A stretch of DNA of 51,073 nt, from assembly GCA_043822305.1 (NCBI GenBank), contig JBDRBU010000050.1, positions 1-51,073 of the forward strand, in the 5' to 3' direction. Of this stretch, positions 3,201-47,946 are shown piece after piece (the stretch's first letter is position 1; each line of letters starts with the position of its first letter). Under the pieces are notes generated by a model. That model did no database searches. It had not been told where the DNA came from and was given only the letters and a program-made list of their open reading frames with translations. The DNA is from Candidatus Firestoneibacteriota bacterium. Its GTDB lineage: Bacteria; Oederibacteriota; D2-FULL-39-29; JBDRBU01. The position numbers and the translations under genes are program-made.

Positions 3201-3790
3201 TTTCCTTCTTCCACTTTCCTCACTTCTTTCACTTTCTCCACTTCCTTCGCTAATTCATACATCCCAATACCAAATGCATCTGGAAATCCTGCACTTTCTA
3301 TTTGATATTTACCTTTTGATTGGTTATATGGAATAGGATGACGAATAAGTGGTGTCGATCTCTTAAATCTAGGACCTTGATCATATCCATAAAACTTACC
3401 ATCTCCTGCAATAAACTGCTGGGTTGGTAACCAGTTTTTTCCATCCTTATCTTTTGTACTCGTGTATACTTTATAAATTTTATCTATAAACTGTTCTGCT
3501 AATTCCTTATATTCGGGAAATCCTGTTTTAGTATAATATCTTAAATACCCATCTGCTTTTGATGGATATTGCACCATGGCTATATATTCACAAAACCAAA
3601 GACTCCCATTTACTTCACTATTCTCACCAACTAATCCAGAAAAATCATAGACACCCTTCAAATAAGTATCTAAACTTCGGGTAACAGATACCATACCTTT
3701 TAAAACTTGCTGATTATCTTCTGAATTAACAAACGAAGTAAAATAAAACAATATAAAAATTAAAGATTTAAATTTAGATAATCTTTTCAT
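239..3790 (-). CDS. Large exported protein with C-terminal heparinase II/III-like region; N-terminal region uncharacterised
   Basis: ORF track 239..3838; likely start is the ATG at 3790 (MKRLSKFKSLIFILFYFTSFVNS, signal-peptide-like). The C-terminal motifs DGRIP, PESGIYVMRSSW and FVKPNYWII resemble Hepar_II_III proteins. Confidence 0.6.
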   Translation of the reverse strand: MKRLSKFKSLIFILFYFTSFVNSEDNQQVLKGMVSVTRSLDTYLKGVYDFSGLVGENSEVNGSLWFCEYIAMVQYPSKADGYLRYYTKTGFPEYKELAEQFIDKIYKVYTSTKDKDGKNWLPTQQFIAGDGKFYGYDQGPRFKRSTPLIRHPIPYNQSKGKYQIESAGFPDAFGIGMYELAKEVEKVKEVRKVEEGKEKKENKEYKEKLIEILNGIVDFWNRDYMRYKKSVAFLYRTEDVEPLNPQPQKKEPKWSCMGSDLIYSVLALNELGQDTNKYDTNLMLFLKTYCDERVNHSGESRIDYLDSRMIELAKYFKNKGKYEGLTNWVFNILPSFYRKRSDRVEFMLDGSLKGSSTTPLLDLYAQLGMKEQFKKLWNNIWNNYFGEEGIKVNDKCVSINNSGYPVLLDAGYQGWLKGILTDEEFISAVQRYYNFKGNERSYRDLNDWVIEIEEWDRIRPNWNATPYDCYPEQVETEGYYKGIPQGFMMHSIPVGSLNSPSRENTKRNLYYQFTSPFANHAEKQRYGLAQAFNLLNTFKNSIPVFNKIEEDKLTTKVVYKEPKAPKGLPCMGIVDVTELYYKDRKISIKDGYEVTEVLNKDKNISWQISHILDYKKPFSEENNAKLCFLIEAEGKEVEGEITIIVRKRNLPYYVTESEELKKSDKIKDLSFIEKQNQDIVTDNVRLKNAFKSYENKDFLKDWRVWCEAYRYNEKEVNPKLESNIKGYFNKELNLEDDPKLKKNISKYFKGELKIEDRVDLIISFSRIYFIYDGELKKEILKAIEKNICILLNEKDYGLKAIESLIRYGVLFPDNVKSKESLESGWIKLKEFLSKRINTEGYDKEKELLQIAKTLIEIERLGQINNIKIPDEIFKTTEKILEFLMYCSNSDGRIPSFIDKSGENIREWLYWGSKIYKRSDFRYVAFGGLIMENSFAPEKTSISCPESGIYVMRSSWDIRDRYRNRSGSDEDRQRVMIVDSKTGEFEISGYNKVLIKGNANGNYKVSKWESNEKEDILVLKDEEKKIEKEIKFVKPNYWIICMNGPSEISDELELNGVEVINEESRARTLSGNLPGAYSQLDIKLRYLGDVQVVSYKAKLEVKDKVVKLSGVYGIGYVIYPYIDDDKKCSYERISGNYKPKVTDRIVTHFAKNEVYREKRICYVPDIEVKEVEGEVKVIEKSKEK

Positions 3791-3797
3791 ATTTGTA

Positions 3798-3834
3798 ATT
3801 ATATCACACCCCCCCCCCCCCCCATAATTGTCAA
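3798..3834 (-). promoter_or_regulatory. sigma70-type promoter with poly-G15 tract in the spacer
   Basis: TTGACA (3834-3829), 25-nt spacer containing G15 (C15 at 3809-3823 on +), TGA-TATAAT (3803-3798), then the ATG 7 nt later. Confidence 0.7.
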
Positions 3835-3904
3835 GCATTTTTTTGTATTTTGCATTTTTTGTGAAATATTTTTTGAGAAAATAATTGAAAAAAATTAAAG
3901 AATA

Positions 3905-11147: not shown

Positions 11148-11714
11148 TCTGCTACCTCTTTTTGTTAAAGGAATACCTTTTTTGCAAAGTGGACATTTTT
11201 CTGACCTAAAATTCTCAACATTTAATGTGGCCAGTGCTTCTTTTCGGACACCAAAATCTACTTTATCACCGCTTCTATCTATTAGCAATCCAACACCTAC
11301 TATATCTCCGTTTAGTTCTTTTACAAGATTAACAATTTCCATAACAGAACCACCTGTTGTAATAATATCTTCAACTATAAGCACTCTTTCATTATGTTTT
11401 ATTTCAAAATCCCTTTTTAAAGTCATCTTTCCTTCTTCTCTTTCAGTAAATATTCCTCTTACATTTAGTTGTTTTGCTACTTCATAAGCAAGAATTACGC
11501 CGCCAGTAACAGGTCCAATTACAACTTCAATATTGTCATCTTTAAACCTTTCTGCTATTTCTTTGCATAAAATTTCTGTGTATTTTGGATATTGTAAAAC
11601 TTTAAACTTTTCAAGATAAGTTCCACTATGCAATCCTGAAGTTAATTTAAAATGTCCGGTAAGCAATGCACCCGCATCTTTAAATATTTTCAAAATTTCA
11701 TCCTGATTAATCAT
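11142..11714 (-). CDS. pyrE: Orotate phosphoribosyltransferase
   Basis: GHFKLTSGLHS and PRPP motif VLIVEDIITTGGS. Confidence 0.95.
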   Translation of the reverse strand: MINQDEILKIFKDAGALLTGHFKLTSGLHSGTYLEKFKVLQYPKYTEILCKEIAERFKDDNIEVVIGPVTGGVILAYEVAKQLNVRGIFTEREEGKMTLKRDFEIKHNERVLIVEDIITTGGSVMEIVNLVKELNGDIVGVGLLIDRSGDKVDFGVRKEALATLNVENFRSEKCPLCKKGIPLTKRGSRK

Positions 11715-14700
11715 GTTTTACCTCCCTGATTTATTTTTCTTTTTTCATTGCACATCTTTGCAATTTCTTTTAAAAACTTTTTACAAACTTTTGGAATCTT
11801 ATAACCACACAACATAACATTATTTGCTGAAACCTTTTTAGAATTTGTTACAAAACACCAACCTTCCAAATATGATAGAATATCTAACAAATACAAGTAA
11901 TTCTTTCTACAAATTTCTAATACTTTTTGTAAAATTTTATCAGCTTTTTTAATTTTACCATATTCTGCAAGAATCAATGTATTAAAAAATATTTTTTCTA
12001 ATGCAGGATAAAAATACGGATGTACTTCAGATTCACATACAAATTTTGGGGTTACCTCTTTACTTATTATCTGATTCCAATATTCCTTGAATTTCTTTTT
12101 AATTATTCCTTGTAAATACAAACTACGGCCATGAACTCTACCCTTAAACTTTAAAACTCCAATATTTTTAGGATATTCCATGGCCAATTTTGTACATTCT
12201 AATGCTTTATCATATTCTCCTGCTTCAATTAATAATTCTGCTTTACTATTATAAGCGTCTTCATAAATCTGCCGTGATAAATATTCTATTTCCCATGGAT
12301 AAAACTGTTTATCTTTTATAAATTCAATTGCCTGATCATATTCTTTTAAATCTATATATAATTTTGCCTTTCTTTCCATAGCCTTAGGATGTTCTAATAC
12401 TTTATTTGTTATTTTAGATGCAATTCTTTTTCTAATATTTAAATATCCATATGCTGCTAAAAATCTATCTGCTTCATAATAAACTTCCCAATTATTTGAA
12501 TCAAGTTTAATTGCTTTTTCATACTCTTCCGCCATTTTACAATGGTTTAATTTTGCTCTCAAATGACCAAGTGCAATATTCCTGTATACAGTAGAATTAT
12601 TTGAACCTAATTTCCTGGCCAGATAAAAATCCCTTAATCCTTCCTCGTATCTGCATTTGTAAAACATAAAATTACCTAAGTATTCATATGTGTTTGGTAA
12701 ATTTGGAAAGTATTTTATAGCGTTTTTTAATATCTCTACAGATTCAATCTGCCATGGAAAAACTCTTTTACATTTTAACTTTGCACCTAAAAAGTAATTC
12801 TTTTTTGCCTTTTTAATATTTCCAATCTTCTCATAACAGTAACCCAAATAGTAATATATTAAAGGATAATTAGAAAAATCTTTTCTTGCTTTACTTAAAA
12901 CTTTAATTGCTTCATTATATAGTCCACTTTGAATATAATCCATTGCAAGTTCTATAGAATTTTCAGGTATTCTTTTTAGAATCCTATCTAAAATATCTTT
13001 ATACTTTTTATTATTATTTATCAAACAATGCTCAAATAAAATTAACCCATCTATTGGTTCTTTTACAATGAAATTGTTTATTATCTTCCTTGCTTCATTT
13101 GTCTTTCCACATTTCCTTAATGCAGCAGTATAAAGACCCACTATCTTTGGATTATTTGAATCTCTTGAATATGTTTTCTTAAACAAATCTACTGCTTTAT
13201 TATAATTTTTCTCAATTAATGCAATCTTACCTAATTCAACAAAAGATGCGGGTGCAATATAACTCTTATCTAAACTTGATTTCCAAAAACATTCTTTTGC
13301 TTTTAATAATTTCCCCTGTCCCTTGTAATTTAGTCCTAAAAAATAGTAAACATCCAAATCATAATTACTACATTTTAATACTCTTAAAAACTTTTCTTCT
13401 GCTTCACTAAATAAACCTCTCATTAGAGCAATAATTCCTAATCTTAAAATTGCTGGTGAATATCCTGGATTCTTTTCCAATACGGCTAAATACTTCTTTC
13501 CTGCCTTTCCAATTAATCTTTGTTTCTCTAATTCTAATCCTTGAAAGTATAATTTTTCTACTGTATTTTTAATGTTTTTACTTTTTGTTTCTTTCTCTGA
13601 TTCATAATAACTTATCTTTGATAAAATCCGTTCATACTTAGCTAAAAAAATATTATTATTAACTATCTTAAAGGAAATCTTATCATTAGGATTAGCATTA
13701 GGAAGAGAGGCAGAATCAAAAAAAGTCACTTCTGGTTTTAAAGATACCCTTTTTTTATAAATAACCTTACCATTAATAGTAAGTATTATTTTTGAATCCA
13801 AAAATTTTTTTGTTGAATTAATATAGAACTTAATCATATTATCATTATGTTTCAGATTTAATATTATATCTGTATTTGCATACATAAAACTTTTTGTACC
13901 TCTTACAGGAATCCAATATCCTTTCCAGATATTTGAAGCATATGGATTCATAAACTCAAAATTAGCCTGTGTCATGAACGAACCACATTGAAACTCAGTA
14001 TAGAGAGGCATATCATCTGTTAAAAAATCTCTCCACATTAAACCAAAATCAGAAGTTCCCCATGTAAAAAACTTCTTTCCTGATTCTTCAAATCTATTTG
14101 AATAATGGGCTACACCAAAATCATAATCTTCATTATAATATCCAAAAAAATTTTCCTTACACTTATGAGCAAAAATCTCTTCAATATTTGCAAAATTCTT
14201 ATAATAACTTAAATCTACTCCTTTATTATCAACAGGGAAATTTCTTGTAATTCCAATACCTGTCACTTTATTAGCCGGAAAAATTACTCTTAAACCATCT
14301 GTGGCATCCGCTGCTGCATTTGTCCAGAAATAATACCTTTCTGGCAGATTCGTCCTATTATGAAGTTTAACTGTTATTTCAATATAAGCAATACCTGGAT
14401 ATAATTTTATAAAAACAGACCATCTCATTCTTGTAGATAATTCAATATTACCTACAACAATAGTAGCACTACCATTTTTTTCAGTATAATAATGATAATC
14501 AATTGTTTTAAAAGAAGTAATAGAATGTCCTATTGGAAAGTTAAACTCTACACCGCAGGCTATCCAACTTCCTGAAAGCTGAACCATAGCAGGTTTTATA
14601 ACGGGATTTTTATAAAACATATCTTTACCACTTATTTTGTCTAAAGCAGAATAAATTCTTCCACCTCTTTCCGGTAAAATAATTAATTTTAAATATTTAT

Positions 14701-14875
14701 TTTCTAAAAAGATTGCTTTATATAAATAGTTCTTTTTTACATCTTTTAAATGCAAATTTCTTACATAAGGGTATACTCTTAAATTACCTTCTAATGTTAA
14801 GTCTGGATTTTTATTTTCTTCTCCAACTTCATAAGTTGGTATGTTTATCTTCTCTTCCCATACTTTTACTTTCAT
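11711..14875 (-). CDS. DUF5107-like N-terminal domain plus multiple TPRs
   Basis: IPTY...VYPY, LENKYLKLIILPERGGRI, GVEFNFP, GKKFFTWG, followed by many TPR-like helical repeats. Confidence 0.8.
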   Translation of the reverse strand: MKVKVWEEKINIPTYEVGEENKNPDLTLEGNLRVYPYVRNLHLKDVKKNYLYKAIFLENKYLKLIILPERGGRIYSALDKISGKDMFYKNPVIKPAMVQLSGSWIACGVEFNFPIGHSITSFKTIDYHYYTEKNGSATIVVGNIELSTRMRWSVFIKLYPGIAYIEITVKLHNRTNLPERYYFWTNAAADATDGLRVIFPANKVTGIGITRNFPVDNKGVDLSYYKNFANIEEIFAHKCKENFFGYYNEDYDFGVAHYSNRFEESGKKFFTWGTSDFGLMWRDFLTDDMPLYTEFQCGSFMTQANFEFMNPYASNIWKGYWIPVRGTKSFMYANTDIILNLKHNDNMIKFYINSTKKFLDSKIILTINGKVIYKKRVSLKPEVTFFDSASLPNANPNDKISFKIVNNNIFLAKYERILSKISYYESEKETKSKNIKNTVEKLYFQGLELEKQRLIGKAGKKYLAVLEKNPGYSPAILRLGIIALMRGLFSEAEEKFLRVLKCSNYDLDVYYFLGLNYKGQGKLLKAKECFWKSSLDKSYIAPASFVELGKIALIEKNYNKAVDLFKKTYSRDSNNPKIVGLYTAALRKCGKTNEARKIINNFIVKEPIDGLILFEHCLINNNKKYKDILDRILKRIPENSIELAMDYIQSGLYNEAIKVLSKARKDFSNYPLIYYYLGYCYEKIGNIKKAKKNYFLGAKLKCKRVFPWQIESVEILKNAIKYFPNLPNTYEYLGNFMFYKCRYEEGLRDFYLARKLGSNNSTVYRNIALGHLRAKLNHCKMAEEYEKAIKLDSNNWEVYYEADRFLAAYGYLNIRKRIASKITNKVLEHPKAMERKAKLYIDLKEYDQAIEFIKDKQFYPWEIEYLSRQIYEDAYNSKAELLIEAGEYDKALECTKLAMEYPKNIGVLKFKGRVHGRSLYLQGIIKKKFKEYWNQIISKEVTPKFVCESEVHPYFYPALEKIFFNTLILAEYGKIKKADKILQKVLEICRKNYLYLLDILSYLEGWCFVTNSKKVSANNVMLCGYKIPKVCKKFLKEIAKMCNEKRKINQGGKT

Positions 14876-14983: not shown

Positions 14984-17900
14984 TTAATTTCGAGGCTCAT
15001 TTGGATACCATAACCATAAGAAAAAATTAAATCTTTTACGCAATTTTTTTAAAACGATTTGAGAATTATTTATTTTGTTTTCTAATATTGCCTTTTCTTT
15101 TTTTTCGTTCTCTAAGTTCTTTTTTATTTGTCTGGTTTCAGCCTCGTATAATTTTAACTGATTTTGCAAGTTTTCTATTTTAAATATAAATTCTTTTTCT
15201 TGGTTTTCATAATTAACCTTTGTTTGATTTAATTTATCTTCCACATCTATTAGTTTCTTTCTCTCTCCTTCTTCTTTTTCCTTTTGTGTCCTTAATTTAA
15301 CCTCAATTAAAGCATATTCTGCCTGAATGGATTTAATTTTTTCTTTTTCGTCTTTTAATCCTTGTTCATATCTATTCGTTACCTCTTTTAATTGCATCTG
15401 CAAACGGTTTATGGCTAATTTTAACTCCTCTTCCTTCATTTCGTATTCACTTTTTATTCTATTTTCAGTCTCATCTAATTTATTTTTTAACAAATTTAAG
15501 TTTTCCTCTTTTTCGTTTAAATCTTTTTCTAACTCCTTTATTCTAACTGTAAAATCAGTGAGATCCTCTTCCTTAATCTTTATAATATTATTGTATTCTT
15601 CCTGTTTTTCTAAAAGACCTTTGTTAATTTCATCCTTTCTTAATAATTGAGATTCATAATCTGATCTAGCTTCTTTGTTCTTTTCTAACTCTAATTGCAC
15701 CTCCTGTATTATCTTGTTTTTCTCAATTTCTATTTGATTGCCTAAAGTATCTTTCGACAAAACTTGCTCTTTTAACATTGAAATTTCAGAGATTAAATCA
15801 TGTATTTCTTTATCTTGATTAGATATTCTTTCCAAATTATTATCTATCGAACTTTTTAATTTTAATATATGTTCTTCTTTTTCCCTGACTAAATTCTTGA
15901 TATCCAATATCTCGATTTCCATTTTCTTCATATTTTCAAGACTTTCACTAAAAGAATGTTCTTTCTGGCTATATTCCTCTTCTAATATTTTTAAACGATT
16001 TGGGATTTCACCTTTTAACTCTAATTTTTCCTGTTCTAAATTAGATATTCTTTGTATAAATCCTTGCATCTCCTCATCTTTCTCGCTTAGTTTAGAAAAA
16101 TTTTCTTCCAAAAACTTCATCTTGTTTTCCTTATCCAATCTGCTCTTCTCAAATTCTTCCAGTACCTTTATCCTGTCTTCACTTATTTGTTTTAGATCAT
16201 ACTCTAATTTTAATTTTTCTCCTTCTAATCTTATTTTTTCAGATTCAAGTATCCTGATTTTATCTTCATTTAACTTAATTTTATTGATATAATTTTCTTC
16301 GTTTGTTTTTAAGTTGCTTTTTAAACTTTCCTTTTCTTGATTTATGTGTTTTATTTCGCCTTCCAACTCCAATCTTTTCTGTTCTAAATTAGACATTCTT
16401 TGTATAAACCTTTGTATTTCTTCATCTTTCTCACTCAAAAACTTCATCTTGTCTTCTTTATCTTTACTTATTCTAAAAATATTATCTTCTAATGTTTTTA
16501 TTTTATTATCTTTATCCAATCTGCTCTTCTCGAATTCTTCCAGTACCTTTATCCTGTCTTCACTTATTTGTTTTAGATCATACTCTAATTTTGATTTTTC
16601 TCCTTCTAATCTTATTTTTTCAGATTCAAGTATCCTGATTTTATCTTCATTTAACTTAATTTTATTGATATAATTTTCTTCGTTTATTTTTAAGTTATTT
16701 TTTAAACTTTCTACTTCTAACCTTAATTGACTTTCTAATATTTCATGTTTTTCCCCTAATCGTTTAATTTCTTCTTCTCTCTCGCTATAAATTTCCTTTT
16801 CCTGCCTTATTTTATCTGATAATCTTTTATTTTCCCCTACCTCTTCCAACAAATTATCTTCTCTTTCTTTTATCCTTGTCATGAAATATTTCTTCTCATC
16901 TTCAAACCTACAAGACCATTCATTTCCGGCTTTATCTAACTTCTCAGTTAATATTTTAATCTTTTCATCCCTTTCAGAGATTTCAATAGTGGTTATGTAC
17001 TCTTTGGCGTAGATTTTCTCTTGTTCAAATATTTTTTTTATTTCTCCTATCTCTTTATCTTTAAGATCATATGCTTCTTTTATTATATTTTCTTTTCTTA
17101 ATATCTCGGTTTTCAAGTTGTTCATCTCAAATTCTTTAACCTCTAAACTTTTTTTCCATAAATCCTCTTGTTTGCAAACCTCATAATTAACATCTTTTAT
17201 TTTACTTTCCATATCTATTAATTGATAGCGAAGGGCTGATTCTTTTTCTAAATACTCTTTAATCAACCCGTTTTTTTCTTCATCTTTTTCTTTAATTTTT
17301 ATCTCCATCAAATTCAAGTCATTTACATATTCTTCATTTAGCTTTTTAATCTCATCTTCATGCAATTTCACCAATTCTTTCACTTCCATCCTTAAAGCAT
17401 TTATTGCTTCGTCGTTTTTATTTAGTAACTCTACAAATTTTTTGCGCTCTTCTTCAAATTTATTCTCCTTTTCTTTGTTTTCCAATCTTTCTTTCTCGAG
17501 AATTTGTTTTAATTCCTTTTCTTTAGTTTCAAACTGTAGTTTTAATACCTTAATCCATTCCTCTCTTTCAATCCATGTATTTTTTTCTCTTTCTTTTAAG
17601 TCTTGCTCTGATTTGGCAATAGATAATTTTGCATCTAATTCACTTTCTTCTATTTTTCTTGTTAACCCTTCTTCTTTTTCCTTAAATGATTTTCTTAAAT
17701 CTTCAATTTCTTTTTCCCTATTAGAAAGAATTTCTAATATTCTTTCCTTATCAGTTATTATTCCTTTAGTTCTTTCTTCTACAACTTTTGATGCATTCTC
17801 GTTAATCTTCTTTATCTCTTCTTCTTTCTTTTCGATAATTGTTCTAATCTTTGTCTCTTGTAATGTTATTTCAACTTTTAATGCATTTACCTCTTCATCT

Positions 17901-18580
17901 TTTACCTTAAGTGTTTGAAACCATGTCCTTTCTCTTTCCTGTTGTAACTTTTCCTCTGCTTCTTTTAATTCCAGAAGAGATTTTTCCTGTAAAGATTTTA
18001 TTTCTTGCTCTCTTTTATTCCAAACCAATTCTCTTTTGGCCAATTCTTCTTTTATGACTACATTATCTTCTTCTTTTTTTTGTAAGTTTTCTATTAATGT
18101 TTCTTTTTCTTCAAATAATTTTAACTGTTGTTTTGAAAAACTCTCTTCAAGTCTTGATTTTAACTGAGATTCCATCTCGATTATTTTTACGTTTACTTCT
18201 TCGTCTTTTTTCATTAATAAGTTTTTAATACTTTTCATTTCTTCTTCTTTATCTTTACGCAATTTATCCCAATCGGACTCTTCTTTATCCAATCTTGCTT
18301 TATATTCATCTATTTCTCTTTGTAACCCTACCTTCATCTTTTTAATTTCTTCTTCTTTGTTTTTTAATAAACCATGCAAATTCAATACTTTATCGGCTAA
18401 TTCCTTTTCTCTTTGCAAAGTAATAGGTGGAGTAAAAAACGGGGTTTCTGACTTAGAATCAGATTCAGAAGATGGAGGTGGAACAAACATATTCTCATCA
18501 ATATCTGGTAAAAAATTATTATCTTTTTGATTGTTTATTCCACTAAATGGCGGTACGGGTGGTAATGTATCATCTTCCAA
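14984..18580 (-). CDS. Very long coiled-coil protein (1198 aa), Pro-rich N-terminus, basic/aromatic C-terminal tail
   Basis: E/K/L-rich heptad composition throughout, no ATPase motifs; TTG start after GGAGGTG RBS that overlaps the upstream stop. Confidence 0.85.
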   Translation of the reverse strand: MEDDTLPPVPPFSGINNQKDNNFLPDIDENMFVPPPSSESDSKSETPFFTPPITLQREKELADKVLNLHGLLKNKEEEIKKMKVGLQREIDEYKARLDKEESDWDKLRKDKEEEMKSIKNLLMKKDEEVNVKIIEMESQLKSRLEESFSKQQLKLFEEKETLIENLQKKEEDNVVIKEELAKRELVWNKREQEIKSLQEKSLLELKEAEEKLQQERERTWFQTLKVKDEEVNALKVEITLQETKIRTIIEKKEEEIKKINENASKVVEERTKGIITDKERILEILSNREKEIEDLRKSFKEKEEGLTRKIEESELDAKLSIAKSEQDLKEREKNTWIEREEWIKVLKLQFETKEKELKQILEKERLENKEKENKFEEERKKFVELLNKNDEAINALRMEVKELVKLHEDEIKKLNEEYVNDLNLMEIKIKEKDEEKNGLIKEYLEKESALRYQLIDMESKIKDVNYEVCKQEDLWKKSLEVKEFEMNNLKTEILRKENIIKEAYDLKDKEIGEIKKIFEQEKIYAKEYITTIEISERDEKIKILTEKLDKAGNEWSCRFEDEKKYFMTRIKEREDNLLEEVGENKRLSDKIRQEKEIYSEREEEIKRLGEKHEILESQLRLEVESLKNNLKINEENYINKIKLNEDKIRILESEKIRLEGEKSKLEYDLKQISEDRIKVLEEFEKSRLDKDNKIKTLEDNIFRISKDKEDKMKFLSEKDEEIQRFIQRMSNLEQKRLELEGEIKHINQEKESLKSNLKTNEENYINKIKLNEDKIRILESEKIRLEGEKLKLEYDLKQISEDRIKVLEEFEKSRLDKENKMKFLEENFSKLSEKDEEMQGFIQRISNLEQEKLELKGEIPNRLKILEEEYSQKEHSFSESLENMKKMEIEILDIKNLVREKEEHILKLKSSIDNNLERISNQDKEIHDLISEISMLKEQVLSKDTLGNQIEIEKNKIIQEVQLELEKNKEARSDYESQLLRKDEINKGLLEKQEEYNNIIKIKEEDLTDFTVRIKELEKDLNEKEENLNLLKNKLDETENRIKSEYEMKEEELKLAINRLQMQLKEVTNRYEQGLKDEKEKIKSIQAEYALIEVKLRTQKEKEEGERKKLIDVEDKLNQTKVNYENQEKEFIFKIENLQNQLKLYEAETRQIKKNLENEKKEKAILENKINNSQIVLKKLRKRFNFFLWLWYPNEPRN
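16131..16711. repeat. Intragenic ~200-bp near-identical direct repeat (16131-16330 and 16512-16711)
   Basis: Offset 381 nt (127 codons); duplicates NEENYINKIKLNEDKIRILESEKIRLEGEK...EKSRLDK with only a few mismatches. Confidence 0.9.
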
Positions 18581-18594
18581 TTTATGCTCACCTC

Positions 18595-20664
18595 CTATTT
18601 TGTCGCCGTCTTATTTTTTTCATAATAGGCCTTAATCCAGCTGGCTAAAGATGGATTATTTGAGTTTATACTTAGCGACTTCTGGTACGCTCTTACAGTT
18701 TCGACCATATTCCCTTTGGCATAATAACAATTACCTATAAATTGATAAACCTGCCATAACCCTGGATTTAAAGCAACACACTTATTAAACTCATTAATCG
18801 CCTCATCAAATCTTTTTCCCTTATAAGCCGTTACACCCAGATTGTAAAATTTAGCCATATCTTCCTTGGTTGGTTTTGTTTCCCCAGCCTTTTTAGAAAC
18901 AAATAAAGATTCTTTTTCTTCTTTCTTTTGTTCTGAAACCGAAGGCTCTTCTTTTTTCTTTTTTTCCATCTCTTTAAATATATTCACCATTGACAAAATT
19001 TTACCAGTGCTTTTACCTTCATAGTCACTAATACTTACTTTTCTTTCTGCCCTGTTTGCTTTTTCTCCGCCACTGGCTAAACTTTCACTACTTTGTTTTC
19101 TTTCATCCTGCATTTCGGATTCTAACCTTTGTATCTTTTCTATCTTTTCTACTTTCTTTCTCTTTTTCCCAATAGCAACTTTACCTTCCTTTTCCAATTT
19201 CTTAATTATATTTACTACTTTACTTCTTTCTTCATCTATCTGCATAGGTGTTAAGTATCCTATCAAATCCATCTCTTCTTGAAGTAATGTTGCTGACCCA
19301 CCAGATATATTTTTCTTTACTTTTTCTACAATTTCAGGAGGTGCTTTAGTTAACACTTTGGCTAAGGCATCTGTTTTAACTTCTCTTAATACAACTTGTA
19401 AGGCAGCATCTTCAAGATCAATAATATTTTCAAAAGCAAAAATTTCCCTTCTTACTTTTTCGGCTAAGGCCGGACTTTCTTTTTCCAATGATTCTAAAAT
19501 TTCATCTCTTGTTGGTTTATCTAACCTGTCTAATATTCCCATAAACCTTTCAAGACCACCGACTAAGAAATCTATCTTTCTTTTTATCTCTTCTTCTGCT
19601 TTTAATACACTTTCAGCACTTGCTTGTTTAACCTGAGACATAGCAATGGCTACTTTTGCTTGTAACTCAATAGGCAAGGCGGCCATTACTTCTACTGCTT
19701 CTTCTTGAGGTAAATATGTCATTATAAGAGATACTATTTCAGGTGGTTCCTCTTGAATTAAGTATATTAAATTCTGAATATTGCTTTTCTTTATAAAAGA
19801 AAATGGGGTAAGAACCCTTATCTCCCCACCTTTTTCTAAAGTTATTGTTGAACCACTAACTTCAGTAACTCTTGAACCACCTCCCTCAATAACCTGTGAA
19901 GACGCACCTGTGGCTGCATTACCCATTCCTAATGCCGCAGGATTAACTCTACCCTCACCGGCTGTTAAAGCACCACCTGCACCACCAATTTCAAAGTTAG
20001 CCTCTCTTCCTCTGCCTTCAGACATTGTTTTTGAAATATTTTTCATAAATAACCTTACTGGTCCAAATAAAAATACCATAGCCGCAATCACTATCATCAG
20101 AACAATTAAATATATTTTGTTTTTATCAAAAAAGTCCGAGTCAAGAGGATTAGCACTAAATTCCCTTCTTTTTATTTCTACTTTCTGTTGTGCTTTAGGT
20201 AAACCAATCACTTTTTCCACTATTTCCTTAATATCTTCATCTTTATCCTTAATAAACTTCTCTAATATAATAACAACATCTATTCTGGAAATTTTTGGTC
20301 TGACAACTGCTTCATAAACCTCAACATTCTTCTGTCTATCTTTTAATCCAGGTGGAATTGGAATACCAGGAGATAACCAGGTATTTAAGTCACCATCATC
20401 TTCGGTCTTAGTATATGTTTCTTTTTTCCTCTTCTCAACATCAGTAGTTACATCTACAGAAACATTTACAATTGACTTTCCCTGACCTAATGTTTTAGTT
20501 AAAATATCTTCAATGTTTTCTTTTAATTTCTTTTCATATTCAACCTTAAAATTTAAAATAGCAATATCAGAAATATCCGTACTTGTAGCCGGGGTTTGAG
20601 AAAACAAAAAATTACTCGACAAAAGACTAAGGGCGATTATTGCTTTAAAATATTTATATCTCAT
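18595..20664 (-). CDS. FliF-like ring domain / TM / FliG middle+C-terminal domain / TPR fusion protein
   Basis: N-terminal signal/TM; EYEKKLKENIEDILTKTLGQGKSIVNVSVD...ISRIDVVIIL (FliF C-terminal ring motif-like); TM IYLIVLMIVIAAMVFLFGP; PFSFI...GGLE...IFAFENI...LQVVLREV (FliG M and C); C-terminal TPR FYNLGVTAY...YQFIGNCYY. Confidence 0.8.
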   Translation of the reverse strand: MRYKYFKAIIALSLLSSNFLFSQTPATSTDISDIAILNFKVEYEKKLKENIEDILTKTLGQGKSIVNVSVDVTTDVEKRKKETYTKTEDDGDLNTWLSPGIPIPPGLKDRQKNVEVYEAVVRPKISRIDVVIILEKFIKDKDEDIKEIVEKVIGLPKAQQKVEIKRREFSANPLDSDFFDKNKIYLIVLMIVIAAMVFLFGPVRLFMKNISKTMSEGRGREANFEIGGAGGALTAGEGRVNPAALGMGNAATGASSQVIEGGGSRVTEVSGSTITLEKGGEIRVLTPFSFIKKSNIQNLIYLIQEEPPEIVSLIMTYLPQEEAVEVMAALPIELQAKVAIAMSQVKQASAESVLKAEEEIKRKIDFLVGGLERFMGILDRLDKPTRDEILESLEKESPALAEKVRREIFAFENIIDLEDAALQVVLREVKTDALAKVLTKAPPEIVEKVKKNISGGSATLLQEEMDLIGYLTPMQIDEERSKVVNIIKKLEKEGKVAIGKKRKKVEKIEKIQRLESEMQDERKQSSESLASGGEKANRAERKVSISDYEGKSTGKILSMVNIFKEMEKKKKEEPSVSEQKKEEKESLFVSKKAGETKPTKEDMAKFYNLGVTAYKGKRFDEAINEFNKCVALNPGLWQVYQFIGNCYYAKGNMVETVRAYQKSLSINSNNPSLASWIKAYYEKNKTATK

Positions 20665-20701
20665 TTACTGTCCTCACGCTAACTATTTACCTCCTGTCTT
20701 A

Positions 20702-21505
20702 TTACACGGCCATTTCTTTAATAATTGCTTCAACAACTTCTTTATTTATCGTGTCTACTTTTTTTGAAAATCCTGCCAATAAACACCAGTTACAGATATT
20801 GTTTATCTCTCTGGGAACACCTCTTGTATTCTCATATATGGCTCTAATGGCTAAATCTGTAAATAATGGGTCAACCCTGCCCGATATTTTTAATCTATAT
20901 AAAATATATTCTCCTGTTTCCTGGTCATTTAAAGCATCTAAATGATACTTCATGGCTAATCTTTGCTTTAGCTGCGGAATCCTATTTATCTTTTCTCTTA
21001 GTTCAGTCTGTCCAACAAGAAGAAGCGTTACTGAGAATTTATCAGCTGGTTGTAAATTCAAAAGTAATCTTAACTCTTCTAAAGTTTCATTCTCCTTTAT
21101 AAGTTGAGCATCGTCAACAATAACTACAGTATTCCTACCTATTTCTAAATTTCTCTTAAACACATCCCTTAAAATATTAAGTAAATCGCTTTTTTCGCTG
21201 GGTAATTTATCTACAACCGCTATCTGTCTAGCTATTTCTTTTAGCATCTCAACAGAATCAAGTTGTGGATTTGTTATAAAAACAAAATTATTTTGATTTT
21301 TATTTAACTGTGTAGATAAAATTCTTGTTAGTATTGTCTTACCACTCCCATAATCTCCTGTAAGCATTCCTACGCCTTGTCTTTCAGAAATAACATAAAG
21401 CATCCTCATCAATGCCTCTTCATGCATTGGAGATGAATAAAACATTTTAATATTCAATGTATTTTCAAACGGTTTTTCAGTAAACCCAAAATAATCCGTA
21501 TACAA
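20702..21505 (-). CDS. ExeA/GspA-family AAA+ ATPase
   Basis: MYTDYFGFTEKPF N-terminus (TTG at 21505 after AGGAG), Walker A GDYGSGKT, Walker B VVIVDDAQ, LLVGQTEL, GVPREINNIC. Confidence 0.88.
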   Translation of the reverse strand: MYTDYFGFTEKPFENTLNIKMFYSSPMHEEALMRMLYVISERQGVGMLTGDYGSGKTILTRILSTQLNKNQNNFVFITNPQLDSVEMLKEIARQIAVVDKLPSEKSDLLNILRDVFKRNLEIGRNTVVIVDDAQLIKENETLEELRLLLNLQPADKFSVTLLLVGQTELREKINRIPQLKQRLAMKYHLDALNDQETGEYILYRLKISGRVDPLFTDLAIRAIYENTRGVPREINNICNWCLLAGFSKKVDTINKEVVEAIIKEMAV

Positions 21506-21516
21506 ATATTTTCTCC

Positions 21517-21569
21517 TTGTAGTTACCCAATTCATTGGGCAAAAAACCTGATAAATCAGGTAACTACAA
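21517..21569. repeat. Inverted pair of GTAG REP palindromes (REP doublet)
   Basis: TTGTAGTTACCCAATTCATTGGGC-AAAAAA-CCTGATAAATCAGGTAACTACAA; outer 11-bp inverted repeat and two inner hairpins. Confidence 0.85.
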
Positions 21570-21766: not shown

Positions 21767-21795
21767 TTGACTTTATTACCATTTATTATTAAAAT
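21767..21795 (+). promoter_or_regulatory. sigma70 promoter of the che operon (leaderless)
   Basis: TTGACT (21767-21772), 17 nt, TAAAAT (21790-21795), ATG 7 nt later, no SD. Confidence 0.6.
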
Positions 21796-21802
21796 ATACT
21801 TT

Positions 21803-22204
21803 ATGGAACAAAAAAATCAATTACCTTTGCTGTTATTTGAAATCGGGGATAAAAAATTTTTTGTTGAGATAAATAATGTAGAAGAAATTATTCCGTATCA
21901 GGAAATTACTCGCTTACCAAAAGGAGACCCAATAATAAAAGGTATAACTAATTTCCGTGGAGAAATTATTGGCGTTTATGACCTTAGTAAAATTTTACTT
22001 ATTCCTAAAAAAAATAATAGCAATTATCGGATAATTGTGGTAAAAGTTAATGGAGAGAGGTTCGGGATACTGGCTGAACGCGTATATGAAGTTGCTTATA
22101 TCTCCAGAGAAAAGATAAATTTCAAAGAGTTAGAATTTAAAAAAGGAACGGTGAACATAAATAACGAAGAAATTGATATAATCAATATTAATAAAATCAT
22201 ATAA
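21803..22204 (+). CDS. cheW: Chemotaxis coupling protein CheW
   Basis: VEEII, ITRLP, GITNFRGEIIGVYDL, FGILAERVYEV; ATG at 21803 preferred over the TTG at 21767. Confidence 0.88.
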   Translation: MEQKNQLPLLLFEIGDKKFFVEINNVEEIIPYQEITRLPKGDPIIKGITNFRGEIIGVYDLSKILLIPKKNNSNYRIIVVKVNGERFGILAERVYEVAYISREKINFKELEFKKGTVNINNEEIDIININKII

Positions 22205-22225
22205 AAAGTTGAAAAGGAGGACAAA

Positions 22226-22588
22226 ATGCTTAAAATAATGATAGTTGATGATTCTTCATTTATGAGAATGATGTTAAAAGATATTCTAAAAATCAAATAT
22301 GAAATTGTTGGTGAAGCAGATAATGGAGAAGATGCTGTCAGGGAATATAAAACACTAAAACCAGACTTAGTTACAATTGATATGATCATGCCCATGTTAA
22401 ATGGAATAGACGCTGTTAAACAAATAATAAAATTTGATCCTGAAGCAAAAATTATTATGGTTAGCGCTATGGGACAAGAACTCCTTGTAGAAGAATCAAT
22501 TCAAAGTGGAGCAAAAGCTTTTATTATAAAACCGTTCCAACCTGAAAAAGTCCTGGAAATTGTAGAAAATATCTTAAAAGGAAAATAA
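22226..22588 (+). CDS. cheY: Chemotaxis response regulator CheY
   Basis: IMIVDDSSFMR, PDLVTIDMIMP, VSAMGQ, KPFQ; all receiver catalytic residues present. Confidence 0.92.
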   Translation: MLKIMIVDDSSFMRMMLKDILKIKYEIVGEADNGEDAVREYKTLKPDLVTIDMIMPMLNGIDAVKQIIKFDPEAKIIMVSAMGQELLVEESIQSGAKAFIIKPFQPEKVLEIVENILKGK

Positions 22589-24127
22589 ATGGATGCTTCA
22601 TTATTGCCCTACAAAGAAATATTCATAAATGAAAGTAGAGAAATCATATCTAATTTAAATCAAACTTTGCTAAGATTAGAAAAGTCCCCTTCTAATTCAA
22701 ATCTGATTAATGATGTTTTTAGATGCTTACATAATATTAAAGGTATGTCGGCTACCATGGGTTTTGAAAAGATTACAAAACTATCTCACGAATTAGAGAA
22801 TATAATAGATTTGGTTCAAAAAGGTGAAAGAAATTTAACTTCTGAAATGATAAATACCCTGTTTAAAGGTATAGATTGGTTGGAAACTTTAATAAACGGC
22901 TTGGGGAAGCGTATTGAAAGTGATGAAAGACTAACAAAGACTGTAAAAGACAGGTTTGAATTAAGTACACCACTTGAAGAGATAACTAAACCTACCACTT
23001 TAAGAATTGATATAAAAATACTTGATGAGCTAATAAATCTTATTGGAGAACTCGTCATAAGCAAAAACAGATTACAAGAAGCAATATCATCTTTAAATGA
23101 TAATGAGTTAAATGATTTATCTTACAATGTGAATAAAATAATTTCAAATTTAGAAAATGCTGTATTAAAAACAAGAATAGTACCTACTGACTATATATTT
23201 AATAGATTTCCAAGAACGGTAAGAGACTTAGCCCGGGAGCAAAAGAAGGATATTAACTTTATAATAGATGGGAAAGATATAGGATTAGACAGAGGAATAC
23301 TTGATGAATTATATGAACCTTTAATTCACATCCTTAGAAATGCTGTTTATCATGGAATTGAAACTCCAGAAATAAGGGAAAAAGAAGGTAAAAATCCCCA
23401 GGGAAAAATAATGCTTACGGCCAGAAAAGAAGAAAATCATGTCATTATCGAAGTAGAAGATGATGGCCATGGAATTAATATAAATAAAGTAAAAGAAATA
23501 GCTATAAAAAAAGGCATTATAAAATCAAATGAGATCGGATTATTAAGCGAAAAAGAATGCTTTTACTTTTTAACTATTCCAGGATTTACAACAGTAACTT
23601 CCGCCAATCAAATATCTGGAAGGGGTATTGGCCTTGATGTTGCAAAAACTAAAATAGAATCATTAAATGGAACATTTCAAATAGAATCAACATTTAAAAA
23701 GGGTTCTAAATGGACAATAAAAGTTCCTCTAACATTAGCCATCATACAAGCTCTTATCGTAGATGTTTATGGAGAAACATATGCCTTGCCCTTTTCTATT
23801 GTAAAAAAAGTATACCCCGTACCCTCTTCTGGTGGTGCGCGGGTTGACCCTAAATGTGAGTTAATAAATCTAAAAAAGCTCCTTTGTATTGAAAATGGGA
23901 CAAAAGATGACTCAAAAGAAGTTATAGTCACAGAATACAAAGGTAAAGATATTGGTCTCGAAATTTCAAAAATAAAATCCCAGCATGAAATAGTTGTAAA
24001 ACCAATAAGTAAGTTGTTAAAACCATCAAAGATTTTCTCTGGGGCGACTATATTAGGAAATGGTGAGGTTGTTTTAATATTAGACATAAACAACATTATA
24101 ACGAAAGGAGGAGAACAGTGGCCATAA
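22589..24127 (+). CDS. cheA: Chemotaxis histidine kinase CheA (no P2 domain)
   Basis: Hpt FRCLHNIKGMS, dimerisation LINLIGELVI, HILRNAVYHGIE, DDGHGI, GRGIGLD, C-terminal CheW-like SGATILGNG. Confidence 0.93.
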   Translation: MDASLLPYKEIFINESREIISNLNQTLLRLEKSPSNSNLINDVFRCLHNIKGMSATMGFEKITKLSHELENIIDLVQKGERNLTSEMINTLFKGIDWLETLINGLGKRIESDERLTKTVKDRFELSTPLEEITKPTTLRIDIKILDELINLIGELVISKNRLQEAISSLNDNELNDLSYNVNKIISNLENAVLKTRIVPTDYIFNRFPRTVRDLAREQKKDINFIIDGKDIGLDRGILDELYEPLIHILRNAVYHGIETPEIREKEGKNPQGKIMLTARKEENHVIIEVEDDGHGININKVKEIAIKKGIIKSNEIGLLSEKECFYFLTIPGFTTVTSANQISGRGIGLDVAKTKIESLNGTFQIESTFKKGSKWTIKVPLTLAIIQALIVDVYGETYALPFSIVKKVYPVPSSGGARVDPKCELINLKKLLCIENGTKDDSKEVIVTEYKGKDIGLEISKIKSQHEIVVKPISKLLKPSKIFSGATILGNGEVVLILDINNIITKGGEQWP

Positions 24128-25767
24128 ATATTGGTAAAAAAATATTAACAATGATCTTGATAAGTATAGTTCTAACCGCTCTGACGATGTTCGGCTCTTT
24201 TTATTTTTATAACCAGTCAATATCTGACAATATCAAAATCATAAAAAATGCAAATTCTTCACTTGTAATTTTTAAAGATATTGAGTTAAAATTACAATTA
24301 TATAAAACACGCAAAGATATAAAACTAATAAATGCTTCTAAAATAAACATAGATAAGTTTATAGAAGATTTGTCTAATAGAAGCGATAAAATTCAACAAA
24401 GTAGAAATCCTGAACTTATGACAAACATTGAGGAAGTAATATTAAGGTCCAAGGAAATTCAAATGAATATAGATACTTTACAAAAAGGGGTTAATGAATT
24501 ATCTCTTACAAAATCTTTATCTGTCTTAGAAAGTATAGAACCAAAATTACATTCTTTAATCTTCTTCGAAGAAAAAAAATTTGATAAAGAAATTGTTATT
24601 ATCAGAATTTTTATACTTGGAGCAACAATTTTAATTGCATTAATTATACTAACTTTTTCCTTGCGGATCTCACAAAGTGTTGTGACTCCAATTCATAAAC
24701 TAATATCTGTAGCCATATCTTCTTCAAAAGGGGATTTAACTCAAAGCATAAAAGTTGGCTCAAAAGATGAAATGGGTGCCTTAGCCAATGCATTTAATAC
24801 ATTAGTAGAAAATCTAACCAAAATTTTAACCCAGTTAAAGAATACTTCTGAATTAATTTCAAAATATTCGGGAGAATTTGCTGCCTTATCCGAGAATTTA
24901 AATTCATCAGCAACAAACATTACAAATTCTGTATCTGGAATTGCCAGGGGTGCTTATATTCAAACAAAACAGATTGAAAAAACTTCACAAGTGATTGAAC
25001 AAATGTTAACATCTGTAGACAGAGTAGCCACCAGAACTCAAATACAGGATGAAAAAACCAACTTAGCCGCATCAATCTCAAAGAAAGGCAGCGATTTAAT
25101 AAGAGAAACGATAAACAAAATGAACCAGATTAATATTTCTGTAAATAACTCAGCCAATATAGCCAGAAAATTAAAAGAAAGATCTACCCATGTAGGTCAA
25201 ATTGTAGAAGTCATTACAAAGATTGCTGAGCAAACCAATTTACTGGCTATTAATACGGCCATAGAAGCAGCCCGAGCCGGTGAAGGTGCACAAGAATTTA
25301 GAGTCATAGCCGATGAAGTAAGAAAACTTGCTGAAGCAACCGGTAAAGCTACTGAACAAATCATAAAACTACTTAAAGAAATACAAAATGAAACTAATGA
25401 AGCCATCTCGGCCACAGAAGGTGGTTTAAAAGAAGTTCAAGCTGGTGTAGTTTACATAAATAAAACAGGAAGTGCTCTTGAAGAATTATCATCTGCCGTC
25501 TTAGACATAAGTAACTTATCCTCGGAGATTTCCAAAAACACCAAGGAACAATCAAGTAGTTGTGAATTGGTTAGAAAGGCAATTTCTGCTATTGCAAAAA
25601 TATCAGAAGAAAATGCAAAGTCAACTGATGATGTTTTAAATTTAGCCCAAAGTCAGGCAGATTTAACAAAGAAAATTTTTGGGTCATCTACAGAATTGAA
25701 AAAATTGTCTGTTGAATTAGTAGACATTGCCAAAAAATTTAAAGTTGCGAAGCAGGAAAACAAATGA
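24118..25767 (+). CDS. Methyl-accepting chemotaxis protein (TM-sensor-TM-HAMP-MA)
   Basis: Two TMs, HAMP GDLT...DEMGALANAFN, signalling domain IAEQTNLLAINTAIEAARAGE. Confidence 0.92.
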   Translation: MAINIGKKILTMILISIVLTALTMFGSFYFYNQSISDNIKIIKNANSSLVIFKDIELKLQLYKTRKDIKLINASKINIDKFIEDLSNRSDKIQQSRNPELMTNIEEVILRSKEIQMNIDTLQKGVNELSLTKSLSVLESIEPKLHSLIFFEEKKFDKEIVIIRIFILGATILIALIILTFSLRISQSVVTPIHKLISVAISSSKGDLTQSIKVGSKDEMGALANAFNTLVENLTKILTQLKNTSELISKYSGEFAALSENLNSSATNITNSVSGIARGAYIQTKQIEKTSQVIEQMLTSVDRVATRTQIQDEKTNLAASISKKGSDLIRETINKMNQINISVNNSANIARKLKERSTHVGQIVEVITKIAEQTNLLAINTAIEAARAGEGAQEFRVIADEVRKLAEATGKATEQIIKLLKEIQNETNEAISATEGGLKEVQAGVVYINKTGSALEELSSAVLDISNLSSEISKNTKEQSSSCELVRKAISAIAKISEENAKSTDDVLNLAQSQADLTKKIFGSSTELKKLSVELVDIAKKFKVAKQENK

Positions 25768-26405
25768 AAAAACATTTGGAACTAACTGAAATTCAAAGAG
25801 ATGCATTAAAAGAAATTGCAAGTATTGGCATAAGTCACTCGGCCACTGCCTTGTCAAAAATGATTAACAAGAAAGTAATGATTGATGTGCCGAAAGTAAA
25901 TATATTATCAATAAATAAATTAGCAGATGTACTCACCACTTCTAATGAACTAATTGTAGGAATATATTTTAAAGTATTAGGTAAAGTATCTGGCAAGGTT
26001 TTACTTTCGTTTAAAAAAGAAAGTGCTTTAGTCCTGGCAGATATTTTAATGAAAAAATCTGTTGGGGAAACAAAAATACTTGCTGAAATGGAACAATCTG
26101 CCTTAAAAGAATTAGGAGCAATATCAACTGCGGTTTGTTTAAATGCCTTAGCCGAATTTCTTGGAATGGTACTACTTCCATCTATTCCCCACTTTATGTA
26201 CGATTATTCAGATTCCATAGTAAAATCATTGTTTGATGAAGTAAAGTCAGACACAGAATATGTAGTTGTAGTTGATTCTGAATTCAAAGAATCTAACAAC
26301 AAAATTCTTGGAAGGTTTTTAATATTTCCAAACGAAGATGCCTTTGAATCAATCTGGCACGCCCTTAAAATAAACAGGGACAGACACCCTATTTTTTTAA
26401 TGTAG
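25764..26405 (+). CDS. cheC: CheC-like protein, both phosphatase motifs degenerate
   Basis: DALKEIASIG...ATALS, IDVP, SALKELGAI...LNAL, PSIP: CheC fold pattern. Confidence 0.82.
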   Translation: MKKHLELTEIQRDALKEIASIGISHSATALSKMINKKVMIDVPKVNILSINKLADVLTTSNELIVGIYFKVLGKVSGKVLLSFKKESALVLADILMKKSVGETKILAEMEQSALKELGAISTAVCLNALAEFLGMVLLPSIPHFMYDYSDSIVKSLFDEVKSDTEYVVVVDSEFKESNNKILGRFLIFPNEDAFESIWHALKINRDRHPIFLM

Positions 26406-47873: not shown

Positions 47874-47946
47874 GGCGGCGTAGCTCAGTTGGTAGAGCAC
47901 GGGAATCATAATCCCTTGGTCGTGGGTTCGAGTCCCTCCGCCGCTA
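47874..47946 (+). tRNA. tRNA-Met (CAT), probably elongator; CCA not encoded
   Basis: GGCGGCG/CGCCGCT acceptor stem, D arm GCTCAGTTGGTAGAGC, anticodon loop ATCATAA, TTCGAGT T-loop, discriminator A. Confidence 0.93.

Follow-up and report, generated by a model that had tools for sequence, protein, structure and literature searches.

What is a FliG rotor protein for in a bacterium in whose genome the other flagellar families searched for are not found? Among ion-driven rotary machines, the flagellar motor is the textbook example, and to our knowledge its rotor protein FliG is known only inside flagella. The question is raised by a 51,073-nt stretch of DNA, here called the window, from contig JBDRBU010000050.1 of assembly GCA_043822305.1 (Candidatus Firestoneibacteriota bacterium). 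On its minus strand, at positions 18595-20664, the window carries an open reading frame (ORF) of 689 residues in which a FliF-like RBM3/collar domain, a transmembrane helix, a linker, the FliG middle and C-terminal domains (FliG_M and FliG_C) and a TPR tail follow one another, as judged from the ORF itself, Pfam, an AlphaFold2 (AF2) model and 17 homologues of the same architecture. The host genome (G000) is a 2.15-Mb draft in 125 contigs and 96.8% complete. An earlier sequence-only reading had proposed that the FliG part has lost its FliM-binding motif and its stator-facing basic residues, and that it keeps the fold while its partners are no ordinary FliM or MotA. Judging from sequence and predicted structure, we think with moderate confidence that its product is a rotor subunit, part of a machine that works without a flagellum and is powered by a stator of the MotAB type.

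Architecture of the FliF-FliG-TPR protein

The chain opens with a hydrophobic segment (residues 1-22; 20599-20664, on the minus strand like every feature of the gene), evident in the sequence and modeled as a helix over residues 2-20, which would act as a signal peptide or first membrane anchor. It is followed by a periplasmic domain (residues 31-167; 20164-20574) without a Pfam match. We modeled the N-terminal 215 residues separately from 19 sequences (predicted local distance difference test, pLDDT, 78) and compared the result with the Protein Data Bank (PDB) using Foldseek. FliF MS-ring chains filled the first 18 places of the match list, with E values from 8.8e-9 to 2.1e-6 and TM-scores on the target of up to 0.57, and several of these entries are described as RBM3 ring, RBM3/collar or S-ring; the next match was SpoIIIAG, at E 1.2e-3. 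A full-length AF2 model built from 47 sequences (mean pLDDT 74.5) also retrieved FliF chains, and it shows the periplasmic domain as an alpha/beta fold with two strands of ∼20 residues (64-84 and 114-135). These models assign the domain to the RBM3/beta-collar fold of the FliF MS ring. The YscJ_FliF family, which represents RBM1 and RBM2, has no match in the protein, whose periplasmic part is only ∼160 residues long.

Sequence conservation and the model place a transmembrane helix at residues 183-206 (20047-20118; 183-200 in the full-length model). It ends in a conserved FLFGP motif, and F198, L199, F200, G201 and P202 are invariant in 19 sequences. Behind it lies a Gly/Ala-rich flexible linker (residues 215-285; 19810-20022) with poorly conserved Gly-rich columns and low pLDDT, which falls below 50 over the disordered residues 219-269. 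The FliG middle domain (residues 298-365; 19570-19773; Pfam PF14841, E 1.1e-10), which aligns to PDB entries 1lkv and 4fhr, and the FliG C-terminal domain (residues 391-498; 19171-19494; PF01706, E 2.7e-25, with identical coordinates in the genome search) are modeled confidently. The closest solved protein is Thermotoga maritima FliG (1lkv), with E 2.4e-37 over residues 286-500 and a Foldseek E of 1.9e-13. Equally confident is the C-terminal TPR tail (residues 600-689; 18598-18867), where pLDDT exceeds 90 and Pfam recognizes TPR_1/TPR_2 over residues 606-673; its residues W637, Q638, Q641, G644 and W676 are invariant in a 16-sequence family alignment.

Some parts of an ordinary FliG were not recovered. 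FliG_N (PF14842) scored below its cut-off (17.5 vs. 25 bits), and then only over residues 312-396, within the middle domain; the canonical FliG equivalog TIGR00207 was not reached either (132.9 bits vs. a cut-off of 226.7). A shortened FliF and FliG_MC are naturally fused in this protein, with a TPR tail added, and a flexible tether stands at the place of the flagellar joint between the FliF tail and FliG_N. The gene should not carry the annotation "flagellar switch protein."

Relatives were collected by a search of 1.84 billion representatives, which returned 119 proteins at E <= 1e-30. Many of these are 450-530 aa long and match residues ∼35-499, and so correspond to the same protein minus its TPR tail. 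Seventeen proteins have the identical architecture (28-78% identity by BLAST, up to 82% in alignments), one of them from Candidatus Firestonebacteria. We surveyed one genome per species, which gave 39 related loci: the single Candidatus Firestonebacteria locus (L008), ∼26 with Elusimicrobia-type names, a few titled only "bacterium," and a last nine that are weaker and mostly from other phyla. Conservation was read from a 47-sequence family alignment, apart from the 19-sequence set used for the N-terminal part and the 16-sequence set used for the linker and the TPR tail.

FliM- and stator-facing residues

The contact sites lie within residues 302-475 of the ORF (19240-19761). We mapped them by pairwise alignment to T. 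maritima FliG (1lkv) and by a profile alignment that includes Escherichia coli K-12 FliG (NC_000913; L007:3881-4876). Both alignments bear out the two motif changes first noticed by eye. The FliM-binding EHPQ motif (E. coli E125-H126-P127-Q128) reads EPPE (residues 306-309; 19738-19749), and MFxF (MFLF in E. coli) reads IFAF (residues 408-411; 19432-19443), with both Phe residues kept and F411 invariant in 47 relatives. Between them lies the Gly-Gly hinge (G369-G370; 19555-19560), the first Gly of which is invariant and the second nearly so in the same 47 sequences. With hinge and F411 conserved and FliG_MC recognized by both alignment and Foldseek, the proposal that the fold is retained holds as well.

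The torque-helix region runs from N452 to T472 (NISGGSATLLQEEMDLIGYLT; 19249-19311). In it, R281 of E. coli corresponds to G456, D288/D289 to E463/E464, and R297 to T472, so the two Arg positions had been assigned correctly by eye, and the acidic pair does remain, as Glu. One site had been absent from the earlier reading: the K264 position is T439, with K440 adjacent. The five stator-facing charges (K264, R281, D288, D289 and R297) thus read T439, G456, E463, E464 and T472; two of the five are kept, both acidic. Across the 47 sequences, N452 and E463 never vary, and S454, G456 and M465 hardly do.

We then compared these positions in two sets of proteins. The canonical set was drawn from 20 stretches of FliM-bearing genomes of the same GTDB phylum, 19 of which yielded a full-length domain. 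The second set comprised 123 membrane-anchored FliG_MC proteins, defined by a hydropathic 19-mer between residue 60 and the start of FliG_M; in this classification, 33 fragments or odd architectures were put in "other," and 14 "canonical-size" proteins were kept separate, three of which (P0074, P0087 and P0140) bear the anchored family's motif. All 19 canonical FliGs have EHPQ, Arg at R281 and Asp at D289, and at R297 they have Arg (17) or Lys (2); the substitutions of the present protein are thus not common in working FliGs. The anchored proteins carry Gly at the R281 position in 110 cases, Ala in 6 and Arg in 3. At R297, 102 of them have Thr (62), Ser (22) or Pro (18), and only two have a basic residue; His126 is likewise retained in two. 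Their D288 position is Glu in 93 and Gln in 30, their D289 position is Glu in 92, and the K264 position is Lys or Arg in 81. Three residues before R297, at position 294, an Arg or Lys is found in 65 of the 123; the clade of the present protein has Gly there (GYLT).

With G, T, E and E at R281, R297, D288 and D289, the present protein fits the anchored-family signature, and the substitutions prove to be conserved across the fusion homologues. On these counts, we read the residue pattern as a signature of the family and not as chance. Since N452, E463, the hinge, F411 and the other positions named are conserved in the family, the changed residues are under selection rather than in decay.

A few proteins stand apart. 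P0118 (787 aa) and P0142 (869 aa) are long anchored proteins whose FliG part retains Arg at R281 and is basic at R297. P0118 has His126 as well, and these two may be true flagellar FliF-FliG fusions. P0018 (640 aa) is a fusion that combines FliM (PF02154) with FliG_M and FliG_C.

Flagellar genes and stators in the host and its relatives

Profile searches of the host genome gave no match for FliM (PF02154), FliMN_C (PF01052), FHIPEP/FlhA (PF00771), YscJ_FliF (PF01514) or Flagellin_N (PF00669), and the present gene is its sole FliG_C match. We also sampled 12 genomes of the host's order and 61 of its phylum. FliM was found in none of the 12, nor in one further genome of the class; in the phylum sample, FliG is present in 43 of 61 genomes and FliM in 38. 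With no FliM or FliN match in the genome and the EHPQ site changed family-wide, the proposal that the protein has no ordinary FliM partner is supported. It might be objected that a normal flagellum was simply missed in a draft of 125 contigs, in a phylum where most sampled genomes have FliG and FliM, or that the gene is a decaying relic. We consider this very improbable. Five separate flagellar families are missing at 96.8% completeness, and FliM is missing from every genome sampled in the order; the ORF is intact and 55-82% identical to relatives of the same architecture, and some invariant residues, the Gly at R281 among them, are peculiar to the family.

The genome does encode a stator. Its five MotA_ExbB genes comprise three of the ExbB/TolQ type with ExbD next in line, one with a DUF6812 protein behind it, and one for MotA. 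The last lies on contig C110 and encodes a 268-aa MotA followed by a MotB with MotB_plug and OmpA domains. Among solved structures, the best matches to this MotA are flagellar stators throughout, with Bacillus subtilis MotA (6ysl, E 4e-47) ahead of PomA and others. Directly upstream of motA, at the place that FlbD holds in the Elusimicrobia operon, C110 has a ParE-like toxin and a DUF6290 antitoxin (L006:2210-2720, minus strand). FlbD/SwrD (PF06289) itself is encoded on contig C121, where its unrelated metabolic neighbors (a NuoA-like gene, a 5-formyl-THF cyclo-ligase and MTHFR) give no functional lead. The available part of a 2026 paper (PMC13740483) equates SwrD with PF06289 and gives an in-silico prediction that SwrD binds MotA; the FlbD of PMC13277936 is the Caulobacter regulator, and we set that paper aside as not relevant.

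In Elusimicrobia, these genes are direct neighbors. The usual locus order is a UPF0164-like barrel/TPR protein of ∼540 aa, FliG-TPR, a Pro-rich and Glu/Lys/Arg-rich protein of 450-950 aa, FlbD, MotA and MotB, and the barrel/TPR protein is often preceded by a protein of >2000 aa. Linkage was scored in 37 of the surveyed loci, with MotA present in 10 and MotB in 10. The host MotA is 66-70% and the host MotB 47-54% identical to the neighbors of FliG-TPR in Elusimicrobia. On contig C41 of the host (L054:7614-14929, minus strand), three proteins are encoded one after the other, the first of 2031 aa, the second a 407-aa UPF0164-like barrel with FlgD_ig and the third a TonB_C protein; the first two resemble the giant-protein/barrel pair before FliG-TPR in Elusimicrobia and are unlinked to FliG-TPR in the host genome.

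The same association appears in the distribution of the genes. FliG_C occurs in 3 of the 12 order genomes (G000, G002 and G040), and MotB_plug occurs in exactly those three; FlbD was found in G000 and G002, G040 being only 80% complete. G002 and G040 have two FliG_C frames each, and the host has one. A genome of the same phylum that is complete and flagellated, G004, has three MotB_plug genes. One is in the flagellar cluster, near FliG and FliM; of the others, one lies within ∼1.5 kb of each of two long anchored FliG_C-bearing frames. Its ordinary FliG (L070) keeps EHPQ, R281 and R297. G004 is an independent case of an association between an anchored FliG and MotB.

We also examined the stator side of the interface. 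The charge pairs given in the available text of PMC12505986 and PMC7564593 are MotA R90 with FliG D288/D289 and MotA E98 with FliG R281. The host MotA keeps both the R90 and the E98 positions (KARQRGFLALEED). Eleven MotAs stand beside or co-occur with an anchored FliG; all 11 have Arg or Lys at R90, and at E98 four have Glu and seven have Gln. The seven loci with Gln at E98 are the same seven that have Gln at the K264 position and Ser at the D289 position of FliG. Gln at E98 fits, on these alignments, a relaxed E98-R281 pair.

The sequence-only reading had gone on to hold that the partner is no ordinary MotA, and here our analysis departs from it. A flagellar-type MotA/MotB is encoded, linkage in Elusimicrobia and co-occurrence in the order connect it to the anchored protein, and the acidic pair and MotA R90 are both kept. 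We nevertheless weighed a partner other than MotA, be it an ExbB/TolQ-type complex, an ExeA-like ATPase or another protein, with MotAB serving something else. The loss of two of the three basic stator-facing residues, at exactly the E. coli positions first named, would fit such a partner, and candidates are at hand in the four further MotA_ExbB genes and in the gene upstream of the fusion (20702-21535, minus strand), a 277-aa ExeA-like AAA_22 ATPase (Pfam E 1.3e-20) that is syntenic and 82% identical in the nearest relative, L008. We regard this alternative as quite unlikely. No other flagellar part was found in the genome for MotAB to serve, the phyletic pattern and the linkage tie the protein specifically to MotB_plug-type stators with the basic residue at MotA R90 and its acidic counterpart both in place, and tblastn gave no match for the ExeA-like gene in the 38 other loci. 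The interpretation under test holds for FliM; for MotA it is unsupported at the least, if not wrong, and only half of the charge pattern on the stator side has gone.

Neighboring genes, a proposed machine and its known relatives

The ExeA-like ATPase, FliG-TPR and the gene just downstream lie on one strand, separated by gaps of 37 and 14 bases. The downstream gene (14984-18580, minus strand) encodes a 1198-aa protein without a Pfam match that has a Pro-rich N terminus, a Glu/Lys-rich coiled-coil-like stretch (20% Glu and 16% Lys overall) and an FFLWLWYPNEP tail, and that is 43% identical to the gene at the matching place in L008. Elusimicrobia proteins at the matching place (c2/c18) likewise have a Pro-rich start and an E/K/R-rich coiled-coil-like body, several with an FWxWLNxP-like tail. 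The 1198-aa protein contains an internal near-duplicate of ∼130 aa, in which the stretch NLKxNEENYINKIKLNEDKIRILESEKIRLEGEK... is present two times, and the antisense strand of its gene holds long spurious Ser/Leu-rich ORFs. L008 keeps the order of ATPase, FliG-TPR and downstream protein, with an extra gene for a 482-aa FliG_M+FliG_C protein between the ATPase and FliG-TPR, directly upstream of the latter (L008:4896-6341, plus strand).

Further downstream is a gene (11711-14875, minus strand) for a 1054-aa protein with DUF5107 and TPR matches in Pfam, for which tblastn gave no match in the 39 related loci, L008 included. When 22 window proteins were searched against those loci, the neighbors matched only in L008, apart from a small number of CheW/CheY matches in other loci. 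Outside that lineage, neither the ExeA-like ATPase nor the DUF5107-TPR protein can be tied to the system. The NCBIfam names for these two genes, PEP-CTERM-associated ATPase (200 bits vs. a cut-off of 324.5) and PrsT (also below its cut-off), were not adopted; the subthreshold matches hint at a possible link to an exopolysaccharide or exosortase-type system. At the far end of the window is a giant protein of 1199 aa without a Pfam match (239-3838, minus strand), and the only Rfam match in the window at gathering thresholds is a tRNA gene (47874-47946, plus strand), with no riboswitch seen. No sequencing run, of RNA or otherwise, was listed as containing positions 18595-21535.

Divergent from the FliG-TPR genes is a chemosensory operon recognized through Pfam and composed of CheW, CheY, CheA, MCP and CheC (21767-26405, plus strand); the CheW/CheY/CheA/MCP arrangement is likewise divergent in L008. 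The host genome has 11 matches to T2SSE-family (PilB/PilT/GspE-like) ATPases, one of them a weak match on the window's own ExeA-like gene, and on that count is rich in machinery of the type II or type IV pilus type. The che operon could equally target such machinery.

These neighbors bear on a further alternative, a static scaffold or landmark. The protein would then form a membrane ring or patch whose TPR tail organizes the Glu/Lys-rich protein, the ExeA-like ATPase or the chemosensory proteins, with no torque and with the FliG domains as mere assembly modules. A polar, non-motor FliG paralogue does exist, FliG1 of Borrelia burgdorferi. The loss of R281, R297 and, in the present protein, K264 would agree with such a role, as would a host gene that sits with the ExeA-like ATPase, the Glu/Lys-rich giant and the che operon and not with motAB. 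We hold the scaffold to be unlikely all the same: N452, S454, G456, E463 and M465 make up the most conserved part of the C domain, which is unexpected for a mere scaffold; MotB_plug co-occurs exactly in the order, and FlbD, MotA and MotB are directly linked in Elusimicrobia; and every anchored FliG-like gene of G004 has its own MotB neighbor.

The MotAB-driven rotor that we favor might be built as follows. The FliF MS ring is a ring of about 33-34 subunits, and the FliF-like RBM3/collar domain would likewise assemble into one, at the periplasmic side of the inner membrane. In place of the noncovalent joint between the FliF tail and FliG_N, there would be a single membrane helix and a flexible linker of ∼70 residues. 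The fused FliG M and C domains would lie under the membrane and present the torque helix to the genome's single flagellar-type MotA/MotB, a stator that FlbD/SwrD may assist. E463/E464, the acidic and sole remaining half of the charge pattern, would face the basic residue at the R90 position of MotA, with the R281 and R297 positions fixed as Gly and Thr. With no FliM or FliN found, the EHPQ site would have drifted to E-x-P-E. Docking of a cytoplasmic partner would probably have passed to the TPR tail. TPR domains bind short peptide motifs, and from this we infer that the tail may hold the giant Pro-rich, Glu/Lys-rich protein encoded just downstream, its likeliest partner.

Several points weigh against this model. 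In the host, the FliG-TPR gene, motAB and flbD are on three different contigs, and the linkage is borrowed from Elusimicrobia. Within the order, the module is confined to three of 12 genomes, all of them kin, which makes for very few independent events; the seven MotAs with Gln at E98 similarly come from closely related Elusimicrobia and represent one or two events at most. The host MotA and MotB also score below every NCBIfam equivalog cut-off (e.g., 230.7 vs. 340 bits for MotA PRK08124). In E. coli FliG, R281 belongs to the charged residues that matter for function, and a fixed Gly in its place could point to an interface that works in another way or does not work.

Compared with the flagellar motor core, the protein shares the RBM3/collar, FliG_M and FliG_C folds, the Gly-Gly hinge, the second Phe of MFxF and the acidic pair, and its host genome shares a flagellar-type MotA/MotB with plug and FlbD. 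It differs in being one polypeptide instead of two, without RBM1/RBM2 or FliG_N and with an added TPR tail; it has EPPE for EHPQ, Gly for R281 and Thr for R297, and FliM, FliN, export gate and flagellin were not found in the host genome. GldLM/PorLM, ExbBD-TonB, TolQRA and AglRQS embody the idea of a MotAB-family motor put to an envelope use other than swimming, and we know of none among them with a FliG-type rotor or a FliF-type ring. The available text of PMC12505986 mentions these systems as other 5:2 ion-driven motors.

Covalent joining of FliF to FliG has precedents. In Chlamydiaceae, bacteria not thought to be flagellated, a FliF-FliG fusion of ∼330 aa contains RBM2 and one RBM-like stretch, no SpoIIIAG-like domain (RBM3) and only the M region of FliG, and a link to the injectisome has been proposed (Bergeron 2016, PMC4768692, in the part of that paper available). 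It thus resembles the present protein as a shortened FliF naturally joined to a FliG-like cytoplasmic part. By the same partial account, the present protein differs in having RBM3/collar, both FliG M and C, and a TPR tail, and its proposed partner is a MotAB stator. For Salmonella and Vibrio, engineered fusions of FliF to FliG (PDB 8z4d/8z4g) indicate, in the descriptions available, that a covalent link is compatible with ring assembly and, according to the accessible text of PMC4768692, also with flagellar assembly and rotation; those constructs combine full-length FliF with full-length FliG, canonical motifs and a complete flagellum.

A 2022 preprint (bioRxiv 10.1101/2022.07.08.499144) remarks in passing on this gene set: among free-living, nonflagellated Elusimicrobiota, most have motAB, flbD and fliG and lack structural flagellar genes, and the role is called unclear. 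The available part of the preprint treats these genes as KEGG-level homologues only, with no account of architecture, a FliF-like domain, residues, an operon or Firestonebacteria. Beyond it, a literature search whose coverage left out subscription journals gave no description of a membrane-anchored FliF-FliG-TPR protein, a flagellum-free FliG/MotAB machine or the residue pattern. New here are the residue-level account of lost and kept contacts with counts, the dispersed Firestonebacteria case, the co-occurrence test in the order and the three-stator genome.

Taken together, the evidence suggests that flagellar motor parts have been reused for another job. More tentatively, as a possibility that we would put well below the rotor assignment itself, the family may represent a second kind of rotary machine. 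Its FliF-FliG ring would be turned by its own MotAB/FlbD and would pass motion through the TPR tail to the giant Glu/Lys-rich protein and, in Elusimicrobia, perhaps by way of the collar to a barrel in the outer membrane that carries giant surface proteins. The work of such a machine, under chemosensory control and in the absence of FliM, could be movement over surfaces or envelope transport, and its reduced charge pattern would be a simpler stator interface, either derived or a relative of a pre-flagellar state.

Genes of the anchored FliG family should not be counted as evidence of flagellar motility. The present protein offers a natural minimal case: FliF is represented by the part that builds the ring and FliG by the part that receives torque, with a dedicated MotAB at their side, where the other flagellar families looked for were not found. 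It would reveal which contacts a MotAB stator cannot do without, here an acidic pair facing MotA R90 without R281 or R297, and a stand-alone rotor-stator pair of this sort would be the intermediate type called for by models of flagellar origin. It also points to a motility or transport output not yet described in Elusimicrobia, Firestonebacteria and further lineages that are for the most part uncultivated.

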